Under the pieces are notes generated by a model. The model worked only from the letters and a program-made list of their open reading frames with translations. It made no database searches and was not told the DNA's origin. From Candidatus Levyibacteriota bacterium (GTDB lineage Bacteria; Patescibacteriota; Microgenomatia; Levybacterales; UBA12049): a DNA stretch of 64,000 bases. Numbering within the stretch: the stretch's first letter is position 1; every line of letters starts with the position of its first letter. The stretch covers positions 121,661 through 185,660 of the forward strand of contig JAYRIM010000028.1 of the NCBI GenBank assembly GCA_041906785.1. Direction: 5' to 3'. This document shows positions 38,557 to 54,172 of this stretch, one piece after another. Position numbers and translations under genes: made by a program.

Positions 38557-38964
38557 TTGTGTATGAGCCATGTCCTCTATAAAGAGCTCAGCTATGAAAT
38601 TGTTGGTGCATTATTTGAAGCCTATAATTCACTTGGTGCTAATTATCATGAAAGGTACTGCCAACGCGCTGTTGAGAAATTCTTAATTAAAAGGAATTTA
38701 AGGTATAAAAAAGAATATCCTGTTGATATTCTTCTTGAAGAAGATGTCATCGGTAAACACTATCTAGATTTTCTTATAAATGAAGTTGTTGTCTTAGAAA
38801 TTAAGAAAGGTAATAGATATAATATGTCAGATATAAAACAAGTTTTAATGTATTTAAAAACAACAGGGTTAAAACTTGGAATCTTGGCTTATTTTGGTAC
38901 TGATGGTGTATTCTATAAAAGAATAATCAATTCGCGAATTTCGCAAAAAGATTCGCATAATTAG
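38557..38964 (+). CDS. GxxExxY family protein (PD-(D/E)xK nuclease fold)
   Basis: IVGALFEAYNSLG (GxxExxY) ... VVLEIKKG ... TTGLKLGILAYFG are diagnostic of this family. Flanked by inverted CGAAT repeat arrays. Confidence 0.7.
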   Translation: MCMSHVLYKELSYEIVGALFEAYNSLGANYHERYCQRAVEKFLIKRNLRYKKEYPVDILLEEDVIGKHYLDFLINEVVVLEIKKGNRYNMSDIKQVLMYLKTTGLKLGILAYFGTDGVFYKRIINSRISQKDSHN

Positions 38965-39590
38965 TGAATATGAGAACATTTAAGACAGAAGGGATTGTTA
39001 TAAAGAGAAGGAATGTTGGCGAAGCAGATCGGATAATTACTATTTTTTCTAAAGATCATGGTAAATTACAAATAAAAGCTTCAGGTGTTAGAAAAATCAC
39101 AAGCCGCCGATCTCCTCATATCGAATTATTAAACTACGTTAATCTTACATTGTATACAGGTAAGACGTATCCTATATTAGTAGAAGCACAATCGAAAGAA
39201 AATTTTTCTACACTCAAAGAAGATTTACATAAAGTAGGACTCGCGTATCATATTTGTGAATTAATTGATGGTCTCTGCCCTGAAGGTCAGGAACACGAAT
39301 CAGTCTTTGAATTATTAAAAAGAACACTTGTCATCCTGAGTCCCGATGGATATCTGGGCGAAGGATCCCCAATGTACAATGATGCCGGAGATTCTTCGTC
39401 CTTCGACAAACTCACGACTCAGAATGACTTAGTTTTTATAATTCATGAATTTGAAGTAGAGCTTTTAGCATTGTTAGGTTATTGGAGAGGTTCACAAGAA
39501 GTAGCAAAAACGCTTGACACTCAACATATGATAGAGAATATTCTTGAAAGAAAATTAAAAAGCCGTAACATCTTCGCAAAACTTAGTTAA
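38964..39590 (+). CDS. recO: DNA repair protein RecO, carrying a 33-codon in-frame palindromic-element insertion
   Basis: MRTFKTEGIVIKRRNVGEADRIITIFSKDHGKLQIKASGVRK is the RecO N-terminal OB fold. Confidence 0.7.
   Translation: MNMRTFKTEGIVIKRRNVGEADRIITIFSKDHGKLQIKASGVRKITSRRSPHIELLNYVNLTLYTGKTYPILVEAQSKENFSTLKEDLHKVGLAYHICELIDGLCPEGQEHESVFELLKRTLVILSPDGYLGEGSPMYNDAGDSSSFDKLTTQNDLVFIIHEFEVELLALLGYWRGSQEVAKTLDTQHMIENILERKLKSRNIFAKLS
39330..39428. mobile_element. MITE-like palindromic element copy (99 nt, 33 codons), in frame inside recO
   Basis: Left arm GTCATCCTGAGTCCCGATGG; right arm ...GACTCAGAATGAC; GGATCC near the centre. Encodes VILSPDGYLGEGSPMYNDAGDSSSFDKLTTQND. Confidence 0.6.
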
Positions 39591-40549: not shown

Positions 40550-42055
40550 ATGGCTGAGAACATTATGGATAAAATTGTCGCACTTGCAAAACGCCGTGGG
40601 TTTATCTATCCAGGTTCAGATATATATGGTGGTCTGGCTAATACATATGACTATGGACCAATGGGTACTGAGTTACTCCGTAATATAAAAAATCTTTGGT
40701 GGAAAACATTTGTTCATAATAGAGAAGATATAGTAGGTCTTGATGCAAGTGTGATTTCTCATCATCGTATATGGGAAGCGTCTGGACATGCGACAGGGTT
40801 TTCCGATGCACTTGTTGATTGTAAAAAATGTAAAAACAGAAAACGAGCTGATCATCTAATAGAAGAGTGGTTAGAGGAACACAGTAAAGATGTCGATATT
40901 GATGTCATCTTGAGTGGAACGAAGGATCTTATGCAAGATTCTTCGCCAAGGGCTCAGAATGACAAGGCAGTCAAAATAACAAAAGAAGAGTTAGAAAAAG
41001 CTCTTGAACTTAAAAAAGTTGAAGGTTGGTCTGAAGAAAAGATGGATGAGTTTATTAAAAATACTCGTATTCCATGTCCTCAATGTAAAGCAGTTGATTG
41101 GACACCTGTGCGTAGATTTAACCTTCTTTTTCCGGTAAAGCTCGGAATTGTCGAAGGAGAACAAAGTCTGGCTTATCTTCGTGGAGAGACAGCCCAAGGA
41201 ATGTTTGTTGATTTTCGACACGTAGTCGATTCCACTCGTGTTCGTTTACCATTTGGTATCGCACAGTTAGGAAAAAGTTTTAGAAATGAAATAACGTTAG
41301 GTAATTCCGTCTTTAGAACAATAGAGTTTGAACAAGGAGAAATAGAATATTTCTTCGATCCGGAAAAAACACTTTGGGAGAAATTATTTGAAGAATGGAA
41401 GGAACAGATGTGGAATTTCGTTTTGTGGGAACTTGGAATTAATGAGAAAAATGTCAGATGGCGAGTACATACAGATGAAGAACGATCTTTTTATAGTAAA
41501 CGGACAGAAGATCTCGAGTATAATTTTCCTTTCGGATATAAAGAATTATGGGGATTAGCATATCGAACTGATTATGATTTAAAACAGCACATGCAGTTTT
41601 CAGGAAAAGATCTTTCTATCACTGATCCTTATACCCAAAAGAAAGTTATTCCTCATGTTATCGAGCCTGCTGTTGGTATTAACCGTTTGCTTTTGATGGT
41701 GTTATGTGAAGCATATTCTGAGATAGATGACCGGGTAGTGCTAAGTTTGAAACCAAAACTTGCTCCATATAAAGTCGCAGTATTTCCATTACTTGCGAAT
41801 AAAGAAGAATTAGTGAAAAAAGCGAGAGAAATCTACGGTTCTTTAAAGCCTCATATGAATATCGCATGGGATGATAGAGGAAATATTGGTAAAAGGTATT
41901 TATACCAAGATGAGATTGGTACACCATGGTGTGTTACAGTAGATTTTCAAACACTTGAAGATGGAACAGTAACTGTTCGCGATCGCGATACGGCAGAGCA
42001 AGAAAGAGTGAAAGTTGAAGAGCTTACAACACACTTTAATAGCAGGTTAGCATAA
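40550..42055 (+). CDS. glyQS: glycine--tRNA ligase (dimeric alpha2 class II type)
   Basis: GLANTYDYGPMGTELLRNIKNLWW, class II motifs, C-terminal anticodon-binding domain. Confidence 0.9.
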   Translation: MAENIMDKIVALAKRRGFIYPGSDIYGGLANTYDYGPMGTELLRNIKNLWWKTFVHNREDIVGLDASVISHHRIWEASGHATGFSDALVDCKKCKNRKRADHLIEEWLEEHSKDVDIDVILSGTKDLMQDSSPRAQNDKAVKITKEELEKALELKKVEGWSEEKMDEFIKNTRIPCPQCKAVDWTPVRRFNLLFPVKLGIVEGEQSLAYLRGETAQGMFVDFRHVVDSTRVRLPFGIAQLGKSFRNEITLGNSVFRTIEFEQGEIEYFFDPEKTLWEKLFEEWKEQMWNFVLWELGINEKNVRWRVHTDEERSFYSKRTEDLEYNFPFGYKELWGLAYRTDYDLKQHMQFSGKDLSITDPYTQKKVIPHVIEPAVGINRLLLMVLCEAYSEIDDRVVLSLKPKLAPYKVAVFPLLANKEELVKKAREIYGSLKPHMNIAWDDRGNIGKRYLYQDEIGTPWCVTVDFQTLEDGTVTVRDRDTAEQERVKVEELTTHFNSRLA

Positions 42056-42407: not shown

Positions 42408-43202
42408 CTAGGCAACTTTTCTGTAAAACTGAGATAAAGGAATAGGAGATTGATCTTGGGGAACAACAATTGTTCCAGGTATTATGACACGCATACGTAA
42501 ATCTTCACCTCGAAATTCACCATCTGTATCCAATCCACATCCTTCAAGCCATCCATTCGGGGTATAGTATCCAGGAAATCTAATCGGTTTTTTCAAGAAT
42601 TGTTCCTGTTCCTCATGTTCTGCTCCCCTTTTTATAAATAACACACTTTCTTCTAAATTCGGATACAGTTCAGCAAGTCTCTCTCTAACTGCAAGTATAC
42701 TAAAACCTGTATCAAGTACATCATCTAACGTGATAACTGGCCCTGTTGAAGGTCTTAGTCTTTCTAATTCCTGTTGTATAAAACGAGGTTGTCTGTTCGA
42801 TGTCATTTTATCGTCATAACTTGAGACATGGAGTGAATGATAACTAAAATCTTTAATATCTCTTCGTTGAAGCGCAGAGAATAACCAACCTGCGAAAGGT
42901 AAGCCTCCTTCTAACATAATTAAAAATTTTGCTTTCTGCTTTCGAATCTCAGGAGCCATTTTATCTGCAATTTTGTCTACTTCTTCAAGAACTTGTTCAT
43001 GGGTTAATAAAAGTTCATATTCCACACCATTTTCTACATAGTACATACTTTTTTCAGAATGAGGGTTGGGTTGTGTTCCGGCTCCTTCAGGAATATGCAC
43101 CTTTGGTAATCCATTTGGTGTTAATATGCTGCTTTCGCCATTGGGTCGTAAAACAGTTCGATATCTTTCCGGTGTATAGATTATTCCTTCTTTTATTGCC
43201 AT
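42408..43202 (-). CDS. phosphoribosyltransferase-domain protein (HGPRT-like)
   Basis: VITLDDVLDTGFSI matches the PRPP-binding motif (hydrophobic4-DD-x-x-DTG); intermediate GC. Confidence 0.55.
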   Translation of the reverse strand: MAIKEGIIYTPERYRTVLRPNGESSILTPNGLPKVHIPEGAGTQPNPHSEKSMYYVENGVEYELLLTHEQVLEEVDKIADKMAPEIRKQKAKFLIMLEGGLPFAGWLFSALQRRDIKDFSYHSLHVSSYDDKMTSNRQPRFIQQELERLRPSTGPVITLDDVLDTGFSILAVRERLAELYPNLEESVLFIKRGAEHEEQEQFLKKPIRFPGYYTPNGWLEGCGLDTDGEFRGEDLRMRVIIPGTIVVPQDQSPIPLSQFYRKVA

Positions 43203-43228
43203 ATTTTATGTATAAAATTTTGGTGATT

Positions 43229-43258
43229 GGGGGGCCCCGATGTGAAATCGGGACCCCC
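43229..43258 (-). terminator. GC-rich hairpin at the left boundary of the high-GC island (candidate terminator of the minus-strand phosphorylase gene)
   Basis: GGGGGCCCCGAT-gtgaa-ATCGGGACCCCC (11-bp stem with one mismatch); an A/T-rich run follows on the minus strand. Confidence 0.4.
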
Positions 43259-43304
43259 TCCGCACCAGTTGACTCGAGTTGAAGGCGTCAGTGAGTGTAG
43301 CTTC

Positions 43305-44351
43305 TTACTGCTGGGACAGCGCTTCCTGGTAGACCTCAGGCCGGTGGATGAGCAACTCCCGGCACGTACAGTTCGTGGGGATAGGAGCTGTCTCAAGCAG
43401 GAGAGCCTCGAATTCCAGAATCCGCCGCGGGAGCTGCTTGACGTAGAGGCTGTCGAGCGTCGTGTTCAGGCCGAACTTGGGGTCGGTTACATCCTGCCCT
43501 TCGCAGTCGTTCGCGACGATGCAATAGTAACCTTCGTCCATACCAAGATGCCTGCACAGGATTGGCGTAACGCTATCACCGTGGAGCATGGCGAAGGGGG
43601 ATCCTTCGCGCTCGGAGATGGTCTGCATCATGTGTCGCCAGACCATAGTTTCGCCTTCGCTCTCGAACGTGCCGCCTGTTGGACTCCGCAAGATTACGCG
43701 GACGTCGCTGGGGCGGTGAACCTTCGGGAAGAACTCGAGGTCCTCTGCCAGGTCTGCCATCCACCCGCTCAGGCTGACGCAGAAGGGATCCTTCATGCGT
43801 GCCAAGTTCGGGAGGACCCCGCCTATCCCAGTGCCGGGGAGATGCCCGGCCATGTTATCGTTCCGATAAAAGGACCATGGGAAGACGATGTCGCCGGGAC
43901 GAATCGCGTCCTGAAGGTTGGCTGGTGAGCGGGGGTCGTTGACCCCATGGGTACCACCGACGAAGAGAACACGAACGCCAGCCTTCCACAGAATCCAGAA
44001 GAGACGCCATTGTCCTTCATGGGGATGCGTGAATCGTTCACCCCGTACCCCGCCGTAGGACGGAATCCAGATGACGTCACGTCCGGATGAGGTGGTGAAC
44101 TGAGTAACCAGCGGGCCGAGGCCGTAAGGCGTGCGCACACGGGCGTTGAAGTTGAGTACCCAGCCCCTCGCCTGGCGGTCGGCGATGACCTGCTCAGGCG
44201 TGACGCCCCAGAGCGGCGAGCCAGTGATGCTCGCCACGGATGCTGACGGTCCATCATAGGCGAAGTTCAGAACAGCGGGATCTTTATATCCTCCCAACAT
44301 CGGTGCCTCCATAGATATGTTGCATGATGCGTGCCTCCACTGTGGAAACAA
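43305..44351 (-). CDS. MTAP/PNP-family nucleoside phosphorylase (high-GC island). True start probably an internal Met (~44312).
   Basis: LFWILWKAGVRVLFVGGTHGVNDP ... IRPGDIVFPWSFY ... CIVANDCEG parallels MTAP ([23 protein letters not shown] ... PGDIVIIDQFIDRT ... ATDYDCW). Confidence 0.45.
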   Translation of the reverse strand: MFPQWRHASCNISMEAPMLGGYKDPAVLNFAYDGPSASVASITGSPLWGVTPEQVIADRQARGWVLNFNARVRTPYGLGPLVTQFTTSSGRDVIWIPSYGGVRGERFTHPHEGQWRLFWILWKAGVRVLFVGGTHGVNDPRSPANLQDAIRPGDIVFPWSFYRNDNMAGHLPGTGIGGVLPNLARMKDPFCVSLSGWMADLAEDLEFFPKVHRPSDVRVILRSPTGGTFESEGETMVWRHMMQTISEREGSPFAMLHGDSVTPILCRHLGMDEGYYCIVANDCEGQDVTDPKFGLNTTLDSLYVKQLPRRILEFEALLLETAPIPTNCTCRELLIHRPEVYQEALSQQ

Positions 44352-45147
44352 CGCGCATGAAACCGAGTGACAGGACTGCGCTGGCGATTGCCAGGTCGAC
44401 GAGCAAGTCCATCCGATACCGTGTAGTGAAGGTGTACAACAACCACCCGAGGCCGCCGCCGGCTGTCAGCCATTCCACGACCACTGCTGAGAGGATTACC
44501 ACACTCGCCGACGTCTTCAAAGCTGCGAAGAGCATCGGCAGCGAATAGTAGATCCGTACATGGCGGAACGTGGCCCATGGCGTGATGCCTGGCAAGGTCT
44601 GGGTATAGTCCATCACGTCCGACTCCACTTGATGCAACCCTGTGAAGAAGTTGATCAAGGTGGGGAAGAACGTTGCCAACGACACGAGCGCGACTCTCAT
44701 CTTCCAGTTAGGGCCGAGGACGAGCATCAGCATCGGGATCAGAACGATAAACGGCACGCTCTTCACCCAGACTGATGTTCGGAGTACGACCGGTTTTAGC
44801 CATGGCACGAATACCATGACGATCGACAGCATGATCGCGATGCTGTTGCCGACCACGAACCCGGATAGAGCATCTAGCAGCGTTAGGCCGATGTTCTGGA
44901 TGATCCAGATACCGTTCGGAATCCGTAATGCCAGATCCTGTTCCCACAGGGCAACGATGACCTTATGGGGAGCAGGGAGTATGAACTGCACATAGTCGGG
45001 GGCGAAGTGAAGGTAGATGTAGACGAGTAGTATCAGCCCCCCGATGTGCAGGATTAGCCCAAGACGTTCGACGAACTGAGTAGCTCCGCGCTTGAGTAAC
45101 GAGAGCCAACCAGTTGGCTGAGGATGATGTTTCAATGCTACTCTCAT
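44284..45147 (-). CDS. ABC transporter permease (NitT/TauT / binding-protein-dependent family)
   Basis: 6 TM helices; conserved EAA-like region ...ALKTSASVVILSAVVVEWL; high GC. Confidence 0.7.
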   Translation of the reverse strand: MRVALKHHPQPTGWLSLLKRGATQFVERLGLILHIGGLILLVYIYLHFAPDYVQFILPAPHKVIVALWEQDLALRIPNGIWIIQNIGLTLLDALSGFVVGNSIAIMLSIVMVFVPWLKPVVLRTSVWVKSVPFIVLIPMLMLVLGPNWKMRVALVSLATFFPTLINFFTGLHQVESDVMDYTQTLPGITPWATFRHVRIYYSLPMLFAALKTSASVVILSAVVVEWLTAGGGLGWLLYTFTTRYRMDLLVDLAIASAVLSLGFMRVVSTVEARIMQHIYGGTDVGRI

Positions 45148-45159
45148 ACGTAGCCCTCC

Positions 45160-46239
45160 TTACTTCAGGTAGTCGAGTGTCATCAGCTCCTGGAGTGTGG
45201 GACGGCGGCGAATCACGTTGTTTGTCATGTAGAAGTCGAGTGCTTCCTCGATCCGCTTGCCGTCCATCCAGAGAAGACCGTTAGACTTGGTAGACTCGCT
45301 AGTCATCATCGGCGCCTGGAGTTGAATACGGCGCCTCAAGATTTGCTCGGTTTCCGAACCACCGAACGCGAGGGCGGTCTTGACGGTGAAGTCCTGGTCG
45401 TTGATCATGCGCTGCATGCCGTTGCGCAGGCCGCGCAAGAAGGCACGCATGACCTGCTTGCCTTCAGGGGTTTCGAGAAACGACCGCTTGGTGAACACGA
45501 TGTCCGCGTAGAACGGTACACCCCACTGGTTATAGCGGAGCGCCTTCCAGGGCAGGCCCTGCTGCTCGAGTGCGAGGGGTTGATTGACAACCCAGTATGA
45601 AGCGAAATCCACCGACTGCGTGAGCAAATCGGCGGGATTTTCGCCTCCGATGCGGACGATGGTGACGTCACGATCATTTACGCCGTTCTTGTGGAGAAGG
45701 GCGATGAGCTGCGCCTCGCTTTGGACACCGACACGCTTGCCGATCAGGTCCTTGGGCGTGAGCTCGCGCGCCCGCTGCTCTGGCGTCAGGTTTTTCTCCA
45801 GAATGACATATCCGAGAGGATGCTCCTGGAGAATCGCACCCGTCATTACGATGGGTACGTTTTCCGCGACCTGCGGCACGATGCCGTCCAGGCTGGCGGT
45901 AACACCGATCTCAGCCTCGCCGGACAGAACGTTGTTAAGAGCGGGAACTTGAGGCCCACCCTCCTTGAACGTGACGGCGAGTCCTTCTTGTTCGAAGTAT
46001 CCGCCTTTGACAGCATTGTACAGGGCGCAGGACTCGCAGTTATGTCGCCAGGGAAGCTGGACGACGAGCGGGCGAAGGGGTTTGGGAGTAGCGGTAGCAG
46101 CAACGGCGACAGTCGGTGCGGCTTTCGGAGCCGCCGTAGTGACGGCCTTAGGTGCGGCCGCCTGAGGAGCGGGCTGCTGGCAGCTGATGAGCAGGCCAGC
46201 AAGGACAAGCAGAACCAAGAGACGTGGAACACGCTGCAT
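45160..46239 (-). CDS. ABC transporter substrate-binding lipoprotein (NMT1/THI5-SsuA-like)
   Basis: MQRVPRLLVLLVLAGLLISC lipobox, then an Ala/Pro-rich linker and an SBP domain. The ORF track extends 25 codons upstream to 46314. Confidence 0.7.
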   Translation of the reverse strand: MQRVPRLLVLLVLAGLLISCQQPAPQAAAPKAVTTAAPKAAPTVAVAATATPKPLRPLVVQLPWRHNCESCALYNAVKGGYFEQEGLAVTFKEGGPQVPALNNVLSGEAEIGVTASLDGIVPQVAENVPIVMTGAILQEHPLGYVILEKNLTPEQRARELTPKDLIGKRVGVQSEAQLIALLHKNGVNDRDVTIVRIGGENPADLLTQSVDFASYWVVNQPLALEQQGLPWKALRYNQWGVPFYADIVFTKRSFLETPEGKQVMRAFLRGLRNGMQRMINDQDFTVKTALAFGGSETEQILRRRIQLQAPMMTSESTKSNGLLWMDGKRIEEALDFYMTNNVIRRRPTLQELMTLDYLK

Positions 46240-46397
46240 GGTAATCCTCCAGTGAACTGATGCTTTGAGTTGGTTGAGACATGGTAGACCACATTCAAAT
46301 AATGTGATCTCCACTGTTCCATACTTGTCTTTCCTAAGGACAAGTGAGAAATCTAAGGAACAGCAGAATGAAAAATGCCAAACATTTTAAAGGTTCC

Positions 46398-51117: not shown

Positions 51118-51184
51118 GTCATTCTGAGCGTAGCGAAGAATCCAAGAGGTCGTTTAAAAGATGTTTCGCTTCACTCAACATGAC
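51118..51184. mobile_element. short copy of the same palindromic element, immediately 5' of the GIY-YIG gene
   Basis: GTCATTCTGAGCGTAGCGAAGAATCC ... GATGTTTCGCTTCACTCAACATGAC. The GIY-YIG ATG (51180) lies in the right arm; the ftsI stop is 2 nt upstream of the left arm. Confidence 0.55.
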
Positions 51185-51467
51185 AAATATATATTGGGTT
51201 TATATTCTAACGAACTGGAACAATAAAGTACTCTATGTTGGTGTAACCAATAATTTAATTAAAAGAATATATGGACATAAAAATAAATTAGTTGAAGGAT
51301 TTAGCAGTAAATATAACCTTACTAAGTTAGTATATTTTGAAGAGTTCAATTATATAAATGATGCGATTGCAGCTGAGAAAAAAATTAAAGGATGGGTGAG
51401 GATTAAGAAGAATAAACTAATTGAATCAGTGAATCCAGAGTGGGAAGATTTGACTTTGTCATTCTGA
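51180..51467 (+). CDS. GIY-YIG nuclease-domain protein (stand-alone, 95 aa)
   Basis: IYWVYILTNWNNKVLYVGVTNNLIKRIYGHK matches the GIY-x10-YIG core. Its start and stop codons lie inside palindromic element arms. Confidence 0.8.
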   Translation: MTNIYWVYILTNWNNKVLYVGVTNNLIKRIYGHKNKLVEGFSSKYNLTKLVYFEEFNYINDAIAAEKKIKGWVRIKKNKLIESVNPEWEDLTLSF

Positions 51468-51554
51468 GTGAAACGAAGAATCTTTCGTAATTGATAAGAT
51501 CCTTGCGCCACCGCTAAAGCTTTAGCGACACGCGGTCACTTCGTTCAGGATGAC
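51458..51554. mobile_element. palindromic element copy immediately 3' of the GIY-YIG gene
   Basis: GTCATTCTGAGTGAAACGAAGAATCT ... GTCACTTCGTTCAGGATGAC with an internal perfect palindrome CGCTAAAGCTTTAGCG. The GIY-YIG stop TGA is the TCTGA of the left arm. Confidence 0.6.
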
Positions 51555-52864: not shown

Positions 52865-54172
52865 ATGTGGCAATCACTGAAGAACACCTACCATCTTGCC
52901 CAGTCTTTTTTGGCGAACGTCTATTATGGATTTCCGGCAAAAAAACTGACTATTATCGGTGTGACCGGTACGAGTGGTAAAACGACAACTGCTTTAATGA
53001 TCTATTCGATGCTGCAAGCCGCAGGGTATAAAGTCTCTGTGTTAACGACTATTAAAGCTATAATCGCTGGAAAAGAGTATGATACAGGTTTTCATGTGAC
53101 GACACCTGATCCTCACGTTCTTCCTAAATATCTAAAACAAGCTGTAGATAATGGTGACACACATTTCGTCCTTGAAGTTTCTTCTCACGCTCTCGATCAG
53201 AACCGTGCTGCTTTTGTGCCTTTTAAGATTGGAGTTCTTACAACATTGGCACATGAGCATTTAGATTATCATAAAACTTTCATAAATTATGCTCGAGCGA
53301 AATTTAAGCTATTATTCGCATCAGAATGCTCCGTTTTGCCTAAGGGTTTATTTAATAATGCAGAAATTAGAGATTTACTGGATGATCTTACAAAAAAGAA
53401 AAAAATAAAAACATTTGGTCTGAATTCTGGAGAAGAAACACAAAAAAAATGGCATTTTAAACTGACAATGCCAGGTGAATATAGTTTACGTAATGCATTG
53501 GCTGCTGCAACTGTAGGAGATTACCTTGGGATAGATAAAAAAACGATCACTGAAGCGCTTGAGAATTTTTCAGCAATACCTGGAAGATTTGAAGAAATTC
53601 CAAACAGACGAGGTTTACGTATTATTATTGATTTCGCGCATAAACCAGACGCACTTGAGGCTGTTTTACATGTTGCACGATCTCTTGTGAAAGAGAAAGA
53701 AAAGGTGATTGTTTTATACGGATGTGCAAGTGAACGCGATGTATTAAAGCGGCCAATTATGGGGAAAATAAGCGGCCTCTTATCAGATGTGACCGTATTG
53801 ACAGATGAAGATCCACGAAGAGAAGATCCAATGAAAATAATTGATGAAATAGCACAGGGGTGTCTTGAAAGTGGTGCTAAGGAAGGTGTCATTCTGAGCG
53901 ATAGCGAAGAATCTAATGGCGATTTGTACAAAGTTGCAGGGGATCCTTCGTCCGATGGGAATCGGACTCAGGATGACAAACAACATATATTTTTTAAAAT
54001 TCCAAATAGAGAGGAAGCGATTGACTTTGCAATTAATACAATTGCAAGAAAAGGAGATATCATTCTACTTTGTGGAAAAGGACATGAGCAGTCGATGAAC
54101 TATAATGGCGTTGAGAAACCTTGGAGTGAACACAAAGCAGTAGAAAAAGCATTGAATAAAAAAGATTTATGA
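52865..54172 (+). CDS. murE: UDP-N-acetylmuramoyl-tripeptide synthetase MurE-like Mur ligase, with a ~30-aa in-frame palindromic-element insertion near the C-terminus
   Basis: GVTGTSGKTTT P-loop; C-terminal CGKGHEQ; sits within the dcw cluster. Confidence 0.8.
   Translation: MWQSLKNTYHLAQSFLANVYYGFPAKKLTIIGVTGTSGKTTTALMIYSMLQAAGYKVSVLTTIKAIIAGKEYDTGFHVTTPDPHVLPKYLKQAVDNGDTHFVLEVSSHALDQNRAAFVPFKIGVLTTLAHEHLDYHKTFINYARAKFKLLFASECSVLPKGLFNNAEIRDLLDDLTKKKKIKTFGLNSGEETQKKWHFKLTMPGEYSLRNALAAATVGDYLGIDKKTITEALENFSAIPGRFEEIPNRRGLRIIIDFAHKPDALEAVLHVARSLVKEKEKVIVLYGCASERDVLKRPIMGKISGLLSDVTVLTDEDPRREDPMKIIDEIAQGCLESGAKEGVILSDSEESNGDLYKVAGDPSSDGNRTQDDKQHIFFKIPNREEAIDFAINTIARKGDIILLCGKGHEQSMNYNGVEKPWSEHKAVEKALNKKDL
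53888..53976. mobile_element. palindromic element copy inserted in frame inside murE
   Basis: GTCATTCTGAGCGATAGCGAAGAATCT ... GGATCCTTCGTCCGATGGGAATCGGACTCAGGATGAC. Encodes the extra loop VILSDSEESNGDLYKVAGDPSSDGNRTQDD, which is absent from canonical MurE. Confidence 0.6.

Follow-up and report, generated by a model that had tools for sequence, protein, structure and literature searches.

Rickettsia palindromic elements (RPEs; Ogata et al., 2000, 2002) occupy in-frame positions in numerous genes and are considered compatible with the folds of the proteins that carry them (PMC10969869; PMC1779305). A 2024 review of MITEs (miniature transposable elements with inverted repeats) regards an RPE-like process in other prokaryotes as only "conceivable" (PMC10969869). 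Here, we describe a 99-nt imperfect palindromic element inside the recO gene of Candidatus Levyibacteriota bacterium (GCA_041906785.1, JAYRIM010000028.1:121,661-185,660, forward strand; the whole stretch of 64,000 nt is referred to as the window). The element is very probably an in-frame insertion of a mobile repeat that is read as a loop of the protein. The gene and the element are laid out as follows:

38970..39590, + strand: recO, 206 aa from the ATG at 38970 (208 aa from the GTG at 38964 chosen by the open reading frame (ORF) tool)
39330..39428, + strand: 99-nt imperfect palindromic element in recO, recognized by its arms, fold and arm profile
39330-39368, 39369-39387 and 39388-39428, + strand: left arm, centre and right arm of the recO element

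The family to which the recO element belongs is similar to the RPEs in many respects. Both consist of short palindromic repeats in intergenic and coding DNA, with genic copies that are in frame and stop-free. In both, the extra peptides appear to be fold-compatible, the genome is small and compact, and aminoacyl-tRNA synthetases are among the hosts. The recO-type family differs in residing in a Patescibacteria-like candidate-phyla genome, with relatives in many phyla, whereas RPEs are found in Rickettsiales, and in having copies of 52-146 nt compared to 100-150 nt. Unlike RPEs, it shows many independent insertions in one loop of one protein, and it is tied to a GIY-YIG nuclease gene located between its arms, a partner of a kind that has not been reported for RPEs (PMC10969869; PMC1779305). 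The GTCATYCTGAG ends of the recO-type elements are similarly not reported for RPEs (PMC10969869; PMC1779305), and the two families are set apart by description. The event thus resembles RPE insertion and is of a known kind, but the repeat family appears to be distinct. A literature search by element sequence, encoded peptides and keywords returned no description of this family, with incomplete coverage such that a prior description is possible.

A sequence-only reading of this DNA had pointed to a 99-nt palindrome in recO that translates without a stop in the frame of the gene, and both observations are borne out. The sequence at 39330-39428 is as quoted in that reading and has terminal arms of 13 nt each (GTCATCCTGAGTC / GACTCAGAATGAC; complementarity 92%) and an inner stem (GGCGAAGGATCC / GGAGATTCTTCGTCC). 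The calculated RNA fold has an energy of -39.4 kcal/mol compared to -25.8 ± 3.6 kcal/mol for 200 dinucleotide shuffles (z = -3.8), none of which reaches the value of the element (0/200). The 33 codons lie stop-free within the frame of ORF 38964-39590 and encode VILSPDGYLGEGSPMYNDAGDSSSFDKLTTQND; both other frames of either strand contain stops. Because its length is a multiple of three and it is open in the frame of its host, the element is predicted to be read as part of RecO, and the stretches ...LLKRTLVILSPDG... and ...TTQNDLVFIIHEFE... would be expected in the protein if the insert is translated. The gene and its insert are identical in a separately assembled Logan contig (L001), and the insert is therefore not an assembly artefact.

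The naming of the host gene as recO holds as well, since Pfam, TIGR00613 and fold matches to solved structures agree. The ORF matches RecO_N (PF11967; 1e-18) and RecO_C (PF02565; 7.6e-10) in Pfam, and TIGR00613 in NCBIfam with 96.5 bits (cutoff 48.7) over residues 7-126 only; RecO_C likewise stops near the insert start, at residue 122. Every alignment-invariant column of the RecO homologs is intact. The likely true start is the ATG at 38970, which matches a database protein (P0001) and places the insert at residues 121-153 (123-155 in the 208-aa numbering). An AlphaFold2 model based on an alignment of 87 sequences (mean pLDDT 84, pTM 0.80) retains the RecO fold with its OB fold and helical domain. 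Foldseek aligns it at probability 1.0 and TM 0.51-0.61 with the RecO structures from D. radiodurans (1u5k, 1w3s), E. coli (3q8d), T. thermophilus (8ab0) and C. jejuni (7ymo), over 168-176 columns, corresponding to the length of RecO minus the insert. By profiles and model alike, the host protein is RecO and its gene appears intact.

In the same model, the G/S/D-rich insert forms a low-confidence loop between helices 112-125 and 153-171 of the helical domain, with a pLDDT of ~50 for residues 131-150 and >83 for the neighbouring helices. The VIL of the element is predicted to prolong the first of these helices and its QND to begin the second. The structure prediction is thus consistent with the surface loop that the sequence-only reading had proposed. 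By analogy with RPEs, we infer that the insert is translated and tolerated.

An insertion, as opposed to a native loop, is apparent from comparison with the 120 best RecO homologs (121 aligned sequences including the query), in which the loop was delimited by the conserved ..TL and IHxFE.. motifs. The modal loop length is 12 aa (61/121), and ~80 of the sequences have 18 aa or less. The closest relative (P0002, on contig L003) has 180 aa and is 63% identical overall and 75% outside the loop. Its contig is syntenic with the window (DUF4012 - RecO - EamA - GlyRS - PRTase - PNP - ABC - NMT1 - MraZ) and has neither the recO insert nor the insert in glycyl-tRNA synthetase (GlyRS) described below. 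Most homologs thus lack the insert, as does the closest relative with its syntenic contig, and the insertion reading stands because homologs free of the repeat do not share the peptide. Only the size requires revision: the protein exceeds the norm of 180-181 aa by only 25-26 aa, not by 33, because eight native loop residues (consensus xRLSxxxD) are gone, with the VILS start and TQND end codons of the element in their place. One protein of 201 aa from the cluster of the uninserted P0002 (P0121) was considered as a filled allele and rejected, being longer only by an N-terminal extension due to its start site.

The element is not alone in the window. The end motif GTCATYCTGAG occurs 11 times with at most one mismatch against 1.36 expected, and no shuffle out of 100 reaches this number. 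A profile built from 368 distinct arms, exclusively from other genomes or loci (consensus TTGTCATCCTGAGCGAAGCGAAGGATCTC), detects nine arms in the window at E ≤0.0025 and nothing else; the recO arms score 5.9e-5 and 5.2e-4. End motif and independent arm profile thus agree on the earlier proposal that the recO element is of the same family as the elements flanking the GIY-YIG gene. Each arm consists of two conserved boxes, Box A (GTCATYCTGAG) and Box B (CGAAGRATC), which in both recO arms and in the right arm of a copy in a Mur ligase gene are separated by an extra mini-hairpin of 12-13 nt, the Mur right arm sharing the subtype of the recO left arm. The elements have a GC content of 0.43-0.51 compared to ~0.32 for the genome. 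The further copies and the nuclease gene are:

40904..40963, + strand: 60-nt copy, in frame in the glycyl-tRNA synthetase ORF (40550-42055), encoding VILSGTKDLMQDSSPRAQND
51118..51184, + strand: 67-nt intergenic copy upstream of the GIY-YIG gene, whose ATG lies in the degenerate right arm
51180..51467, + strand: gene for a Slx1-like (UPF0213) GIY-YIG nuclease of 95 aa (PF01541, 6.7e-15)
51458..51554, + strand: 97-nt intergenic copy adjoining the GIY-YIG gene on its downstream side
53888..53977, + strand: 90-nt copy, in frame in the Mur ligase ORF (52865-54172), encoding VILSDSEESNGDLYKVAGDPSSDGNRTQDD

The 20 aa encoded by the GlyRS copy sit in an insertion domain, and the GlyRS of the syntenic contig L003 is exactly 20 aa shorter. 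The 30 aa in the Mur ligase fall in a variable region. The exact empty sites of the GlyRS and Mur inserts (the latter compared with L002) are undefinable, as the flanks are too diverged. Partial matches to the end motif at 43768 and 61306 were set aside as chance or too weak (arm-profile E ≥0.75). The whole window has no Rfam match at gathering thresholds and the element has none at E ≤1, no tRNA or rRNA genes were detected in the 64 kb, and the three insert peptides have no match in NCBIfam at E up to 10. In two IMG/VR contigs (L218, 8546-8969, and L227, 9003-9429), four to five short elements are arranged in tandem at the contig ends, with starts ~65-160 nt apart.

The frame and length of the genic copies set them apart. 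At each end of an element, one of the three frames contains a TGA (G TCA TYC TGA G at the left and TCA GRA TGA C at the right). The genic short copies in the window and in L002, which include an in-frame 57-nt copy in the glycosyltransferase gene adjoining L002 recO (1758-1814), are all multiples of three (5/5) and share one reading frame, VILS...(Q/R)(N/D)D. The lengths of 48 non-genic copies are distributed 18/14/16 modulo three. Frame 0 is free of stops on both strands in the three genic window copies, unlike in the two intergenic ones. Among 127 short elements from a metagenome contig scan, the 112 without a spanning long ORF have lengths of 38/39/35 modulo three. Outside the phylum of the window, in-frame copies of 87 nt and 66 nt were found in a 926-aa helicase-like ORF on a contig of 60% GC (L192, 1212-1298) and on L100, respectively, and in-frame insertion is thus not limited to one genome or phylum. 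We infer that purifying selection accounts for the frame, length and loop position of the genic copies. One element of 86 nt, not a multiple of three, lies in an apparently continuous ORF of 1184 codons on a contig of 57% GC (L103, 9743-9828) and is unexplained.

The RecO loop has been occupied repeatedly. Other inserts of 20-106 aa, with different junctions and frames, are found in the same loop in ~30 of the 120 homologs, many with element-type signatures such as VILS..QDD, SLSFRP..RDD, HSDRS..GLGMT, ..RLRGND and ..SLEMT. Palindromic elements in the loop were confirmed at the DNA level in five further genomes. Three of these (L204, L205 and L002) have both arms matching the arm profile (E 1e-10 to 3e-4), and the other two (L206 and L207) carry variants with other ends (GTCATTCCGAC.. 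and TGTCATTTCGA..). The element starts at nt 361 of the gene in the window, at nt 378 in L204 and L205 and at nt 381 in L002; this scatter of junctions over ~30 nt favours a selection filter, i.e. a tolerant loop, over a sequence-specific target. Conservatively, at least six distinct junction or end types can be told apart in the loop. Fitch parsimony on a neighbour-joining tree of 119 sequences (loop-masked alignment) gives an uninserted root and ~24 state changes, corresponding to an estimate near twenty. Certain filled and empty RecO proteins are 89-92% identical outside the loop. At the DNA level, identities within this group are 0.69-0.80 and star-like, and for the copies at nt 378 one old gain followed by losses is therefore inseparable from several gains. 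Alignment of the filled (P0026, P0029, P0028, P0021) with the empty genes (P0040, P0036), ~75% identical, leaves the junction ambiguous, with no footprint or target definable. The window recO insert thus appears as one of a recurrent series in the same RecO loop across lineages. The loop also houses a conserved insert of 30-47 aa containing EIDDYTLGTFGI, without an end signature of the VILS../..QDD type at the peptide level; its carriers (P0033, P0042, P0053, P0054, P0057, P0092, P0102, P0103, P0113 and P0119) form a single clade.

The GIY-YIG gene lies 12 kb from the recO insert, between the two complete short intergenic elements, and its TGA stop falls within the left end motif (GTCATTCTGAG) of the downstream element. 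The protein consists of a GIY-YIG domain with no extra domain, the family profile matches PDB 1zg2 (2.9e-7) and 1ywl (9.8e-6), and the catalytic residues Y8, Y19, R29, H33, E66 and N85 are invariant in 27 GIY-YIG sequences. Its association with the repeat extends to 80 loci with close relatives of the gene, taken from species-representative genomes of many Patescibacteria classes, Bacteroidota, Planctomycetota, Chloroflexota, Elusimicrobia and deltaproteobacteria. Of these, 66 have an end motif within 250 nt upstream of the gene, 65 have one within that distance downstream and 61 have both, and the density of the motif is 4.6/kb within 100 nt of the gene versus 0.4/kb elsewhere in the same loci. 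Elsewhere than in the window, the gene is mostly inside a single palindrome. A typical unit reads GTCATTCTGAG-N-CGAAGAATC, 3-40 nt, the GIY-YIG ORF and GATYCTTCG-N-CTCAGRATGAC, such that the gene, being placed between the arms, occupies the loop of one large palindrome. Many of the ORFs finish with ..DPSLRSG*, the stop being the TGA contained in the terminal CAGGATGAC. Median lengths are 359 bp (334-445) for full units and 75 bp (52-146) for short copies.

The ends also change with the enzyme. GIY-YIG relatives of 40-52% identity in IMG/VR are bracketed by inverted repeats of at least 16 nt with related but different ends (CGTCATTCCCGCGAA, CTGTCATCCCAGCGA, GGTCACCCCGGACTTG and TTCATCCTGCCCGAGG); by our calculation, such a repeat is expected by chance at ~6e-4 per locus. 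Inverted ends of at least 16 nt that differ in type from those of the recO element bracket more distant GIY-YIG genes in IMG/VR (GTCATTCCCGCGAA, TGTCATCCCAGCGA and GGTCACCCCGGAC; contigs L247, L248, L253, L259, L263, L271 and L273-L277), and a "..RLRGND" peptide consistent with the GTCATTCCCGCGAA type is present in the RecO loop of P0067. Relatives below 40% identity, from large phage genomes in IMG/VR, have no such inverted repeats, and a distant blastn search of the unit against plasmids gave no match. Inverted ends and GIY-YIG clade thus appear to covary, the pattern that a cognate protein-DNA pair would show.

This association distinguishes the family from other described repeats. In common with classical MITEs (Correia, ERIC, QMITE; PMC10969869), the elements have terminal inverted repeats, are non-coding or gene-less and multicopy, and occasionally form in-frame fusions with ORFs. 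In contrast to these, the sole gene associated with the family encodes a GIY-YIG nuclease of ~90 aa. Of the features by which MITEs are recognized, the terminal inverted repeats are present, whereas neither target-site duplication nor derivation from a parent insertion sequence with a DDE transposase was found. A closer parallel in organization is provided by repetitive extragenic palindromic sequences (REPs) and their REP-associated tyrosine transposases (RAYTs), where dispersed short palindromes are similarly accompanied by a single small nuclease gene flanked by copies, and the repeat varies with the enzyme clade. The RAYT enzyme is an HUH Y1 transposase, however, and the gene described here is a PF01541 GIY-YIG (Slx1-like) gene; also, REPs are extragenic and the recO-type copies are found in frame inside genes as well.

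The nuclease itself belongs to a known family (UPF0213/Slx1-like; PDB 1zg2, 1ywl). Dunin-Horkawicz et al. (2006) described a bacterial Slx1-like class and a GIY-YIG domain "very recently inserted" in an HsdR gene, and asked whether further GIY-YIG members are molecular parasites (PMC1564403). In their analysis, the family was viewed as mainly vertical repair proteins, and no inverted arms or gene-less palindromes were reported (PMC1564403).

Taken together, we consider it likely that a gene-less mobile palindromic repeat has been inserted into the DNA encoding the inter-helix loop of RecO. A copy entering this DNA would add ~25 disordered G/S/D-rich residues, its end codons (VIL.. / ..QND) replacing the native helix ends, and would leave no target duplication. 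In a compact genome, only in-frame, stop-free copies in tolerant surface loops would escape purifying selection, and the same filter could explain the repeated filling of the one RecO loop in other lineages. The most likely mover of the short copies would be the structure-specific GIY-YIG nuclease, working in trans on a hairpin or cruciform form. That this nuclease is the mobilising enzyme of the repeats is a tentative proposal, for which we stop a little short of even confidence. More speculatively, and with our judgement inclined somewhat against all parts holding jointly, the recO insert may represent, in gene-less form, a class of prokaryotic mobile element that has yet to be described. 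The full form of such elements would measure ~360 bp, with two inverted arms around a minimal Slx1-like GIY-YIG gene. They would occur in many phyla and some viral contigs, move by structure-specific action on hairpins or cruciforms without target duplication, and reshape the surface loops of core proteins encoded by the compact genomes of candidate phyla.

Several observations weigh against this account or limit it. The loss of eight native residues means that the event was not a simple insertion, and the databases searched contain no relative above 63% identity, which leaves the recO insertion without a definable empty site, precise junction or age. Translation of the insert and retained function of RecO are predictions from sequence and model. 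At a mean column identity of 56%, the window copies have diverged and give no sign of recent activity there. Among 91 elements, 72 have no matching flanks and the remainder match over 1-5 nt, at chance level; in the absence of target-site duplication, a classical transposase-type mechanism is not indicated. In the same elements, the base before is T in 72-81% and the base after is A in 78%. The asymmetry of left and right ends in T/C versus G/A holds no information on pairing at the RNA or DNA level. Finally, no remnants of the GIY-YIG ORF were found in the interiors of short elements, and element sizes are bimodal (40-150 nt versus 334-445 nt), such that the short copies are not visibly deletion derivatives of full units.

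The latter observations also fit the main rival to mobilisation by the GIY-YIG nuclease, namely that the palindromes spread otherwise and that the gene is a homing-endonuclease-like parasite of palindrome centres, with the recO insert as an "empty" target. Clean presence or absence of the ORF, lacking both intermediate sizes and remnants, speaks for homing, as does the gene in the window, which is located between two complete short elements rather than inside one. Moreover, GIY-YIG nucleases of the Slx1 type are established to recognise structure, and not sequence, when they cut branched or hairpin DNA (discussed in PMC1564403). The centres of the short copies, however, vary greatly in length and sequence and offer no conserved homing site, the inverted ends vary with the GIY-YIG clade as if the protein recognises the ends, and the repeats have no further associated gene that would be a candidate for mobilising them. 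Overall, we find homing rather unlikely. A different objection concerns the number of events. If the insert in the RecO loop were ancient and vertically inherited, with the 12-aa loops resulting from repeated loss or excision, far fewer independent insertions would be required. Palindromes are deletion-prone, P0026, P0029, P0028 and P0021 share an element start at nt 378 (checked in DNA for L204/P0028 and L205/P0021 and taken from the alignment for the others), and the filled and empty genes of this group are not separated by DNA identity. Such a history is at odds with the parsimony root without insert, with the distinct junction (nt 361) and arm subtype of the window copy, with the different ends and frames of elements in other lineages (L206, L207 and P0067) and with the same 12-aa loop in half of the aligned sequences, and appears improbable.

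It could also be imagined that the inserted peptide has been co-opted for RecO function, e.g. as a partner-binding or regulatory loop, given that the ORF has been kept open and that the end codons of the element are integrated in the flanking helices of the model; genic copies are, in addition, stop-free on both strands. Yet the peptide lacks conservation, the same loop being filled in other lineages by 20-106 aa of unrelated sequence, model confidence is low, the composition is G/S/D-rich, and the family inserts into GlyRS, Mur ligase, a glycosyltransferase and a helicase-like protein as well, all of which makes co-option very improbable. We attach hardly any credence to a native expansion of the loop that is specific to the lineage and forms a palindrome by chance, to a pseudogene or to an assembly artefact. 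The lack of a close relative is the sole point in their favour, whereas the arms match a profile from unrelated genomes, four further copies are present in the window, an independent assembly is identical, and the ORF is intact with the invariant RecO residues and the RecO fold present. An intein or self-splicing intron was also considered and rejected. An intein must have a terminal Asn and, at each of its two splice junctions, a Cys, Ser or Thr; the first of the 33 residues of the insert is Val, the residue that comes after the insert is Leu, and no Rfam match was found at E ≤1. Insertion of a gene-less mobile repeat thus remains the best explanation overall.

Two neighbouring features of the window are of a different kind. 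At 43200-46300, genes on the minus strand for PNP/MTAP-like, ABC permease and NMT1-like binding proteins form an island of 55-60% GC in a genome of ~32%. The block is also found in L003 with the same synteny and 54-56% GC, and is therefore a shared foreign block rather than a misassembly. A PD-(D/E)XK_3 (PF13366) gene at 38557-38964, between the DUF4012 gene and recO, ends just before the ATG at 38970. It is not found at that position in L003, L002, L205 and L206 and is for this reason probably another inserted selfish gene.

Insertions of this type have practical consequences, as they disrupt profile matches (the RecO_C and TIGR00613 alignments end near the insert start) and yield many spurious "VILSEAK...QDD" hypothetical peptides in annotations. 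RecO, GlyRS and Mur ligase all carry copies within 15 kb, and one RecO loop is occupied repeatedly across lineages. The pairing of the repeat with a minimal GIY-YIG gene provides a concrete and testable candidate enzyme for such repeats, and suggests a selfish role for at least the palindrome-flanked part of the large Slx1-like (UPF0213) family. Selfish palindromes in frame within genes have so far been seen as peculiar to Rickettsia. Their occurrence in a candidate-phyla genome, in a second and apparently unrelated family, suggests that new protein loops may generally arise by this route when genomes have little intergenic space.

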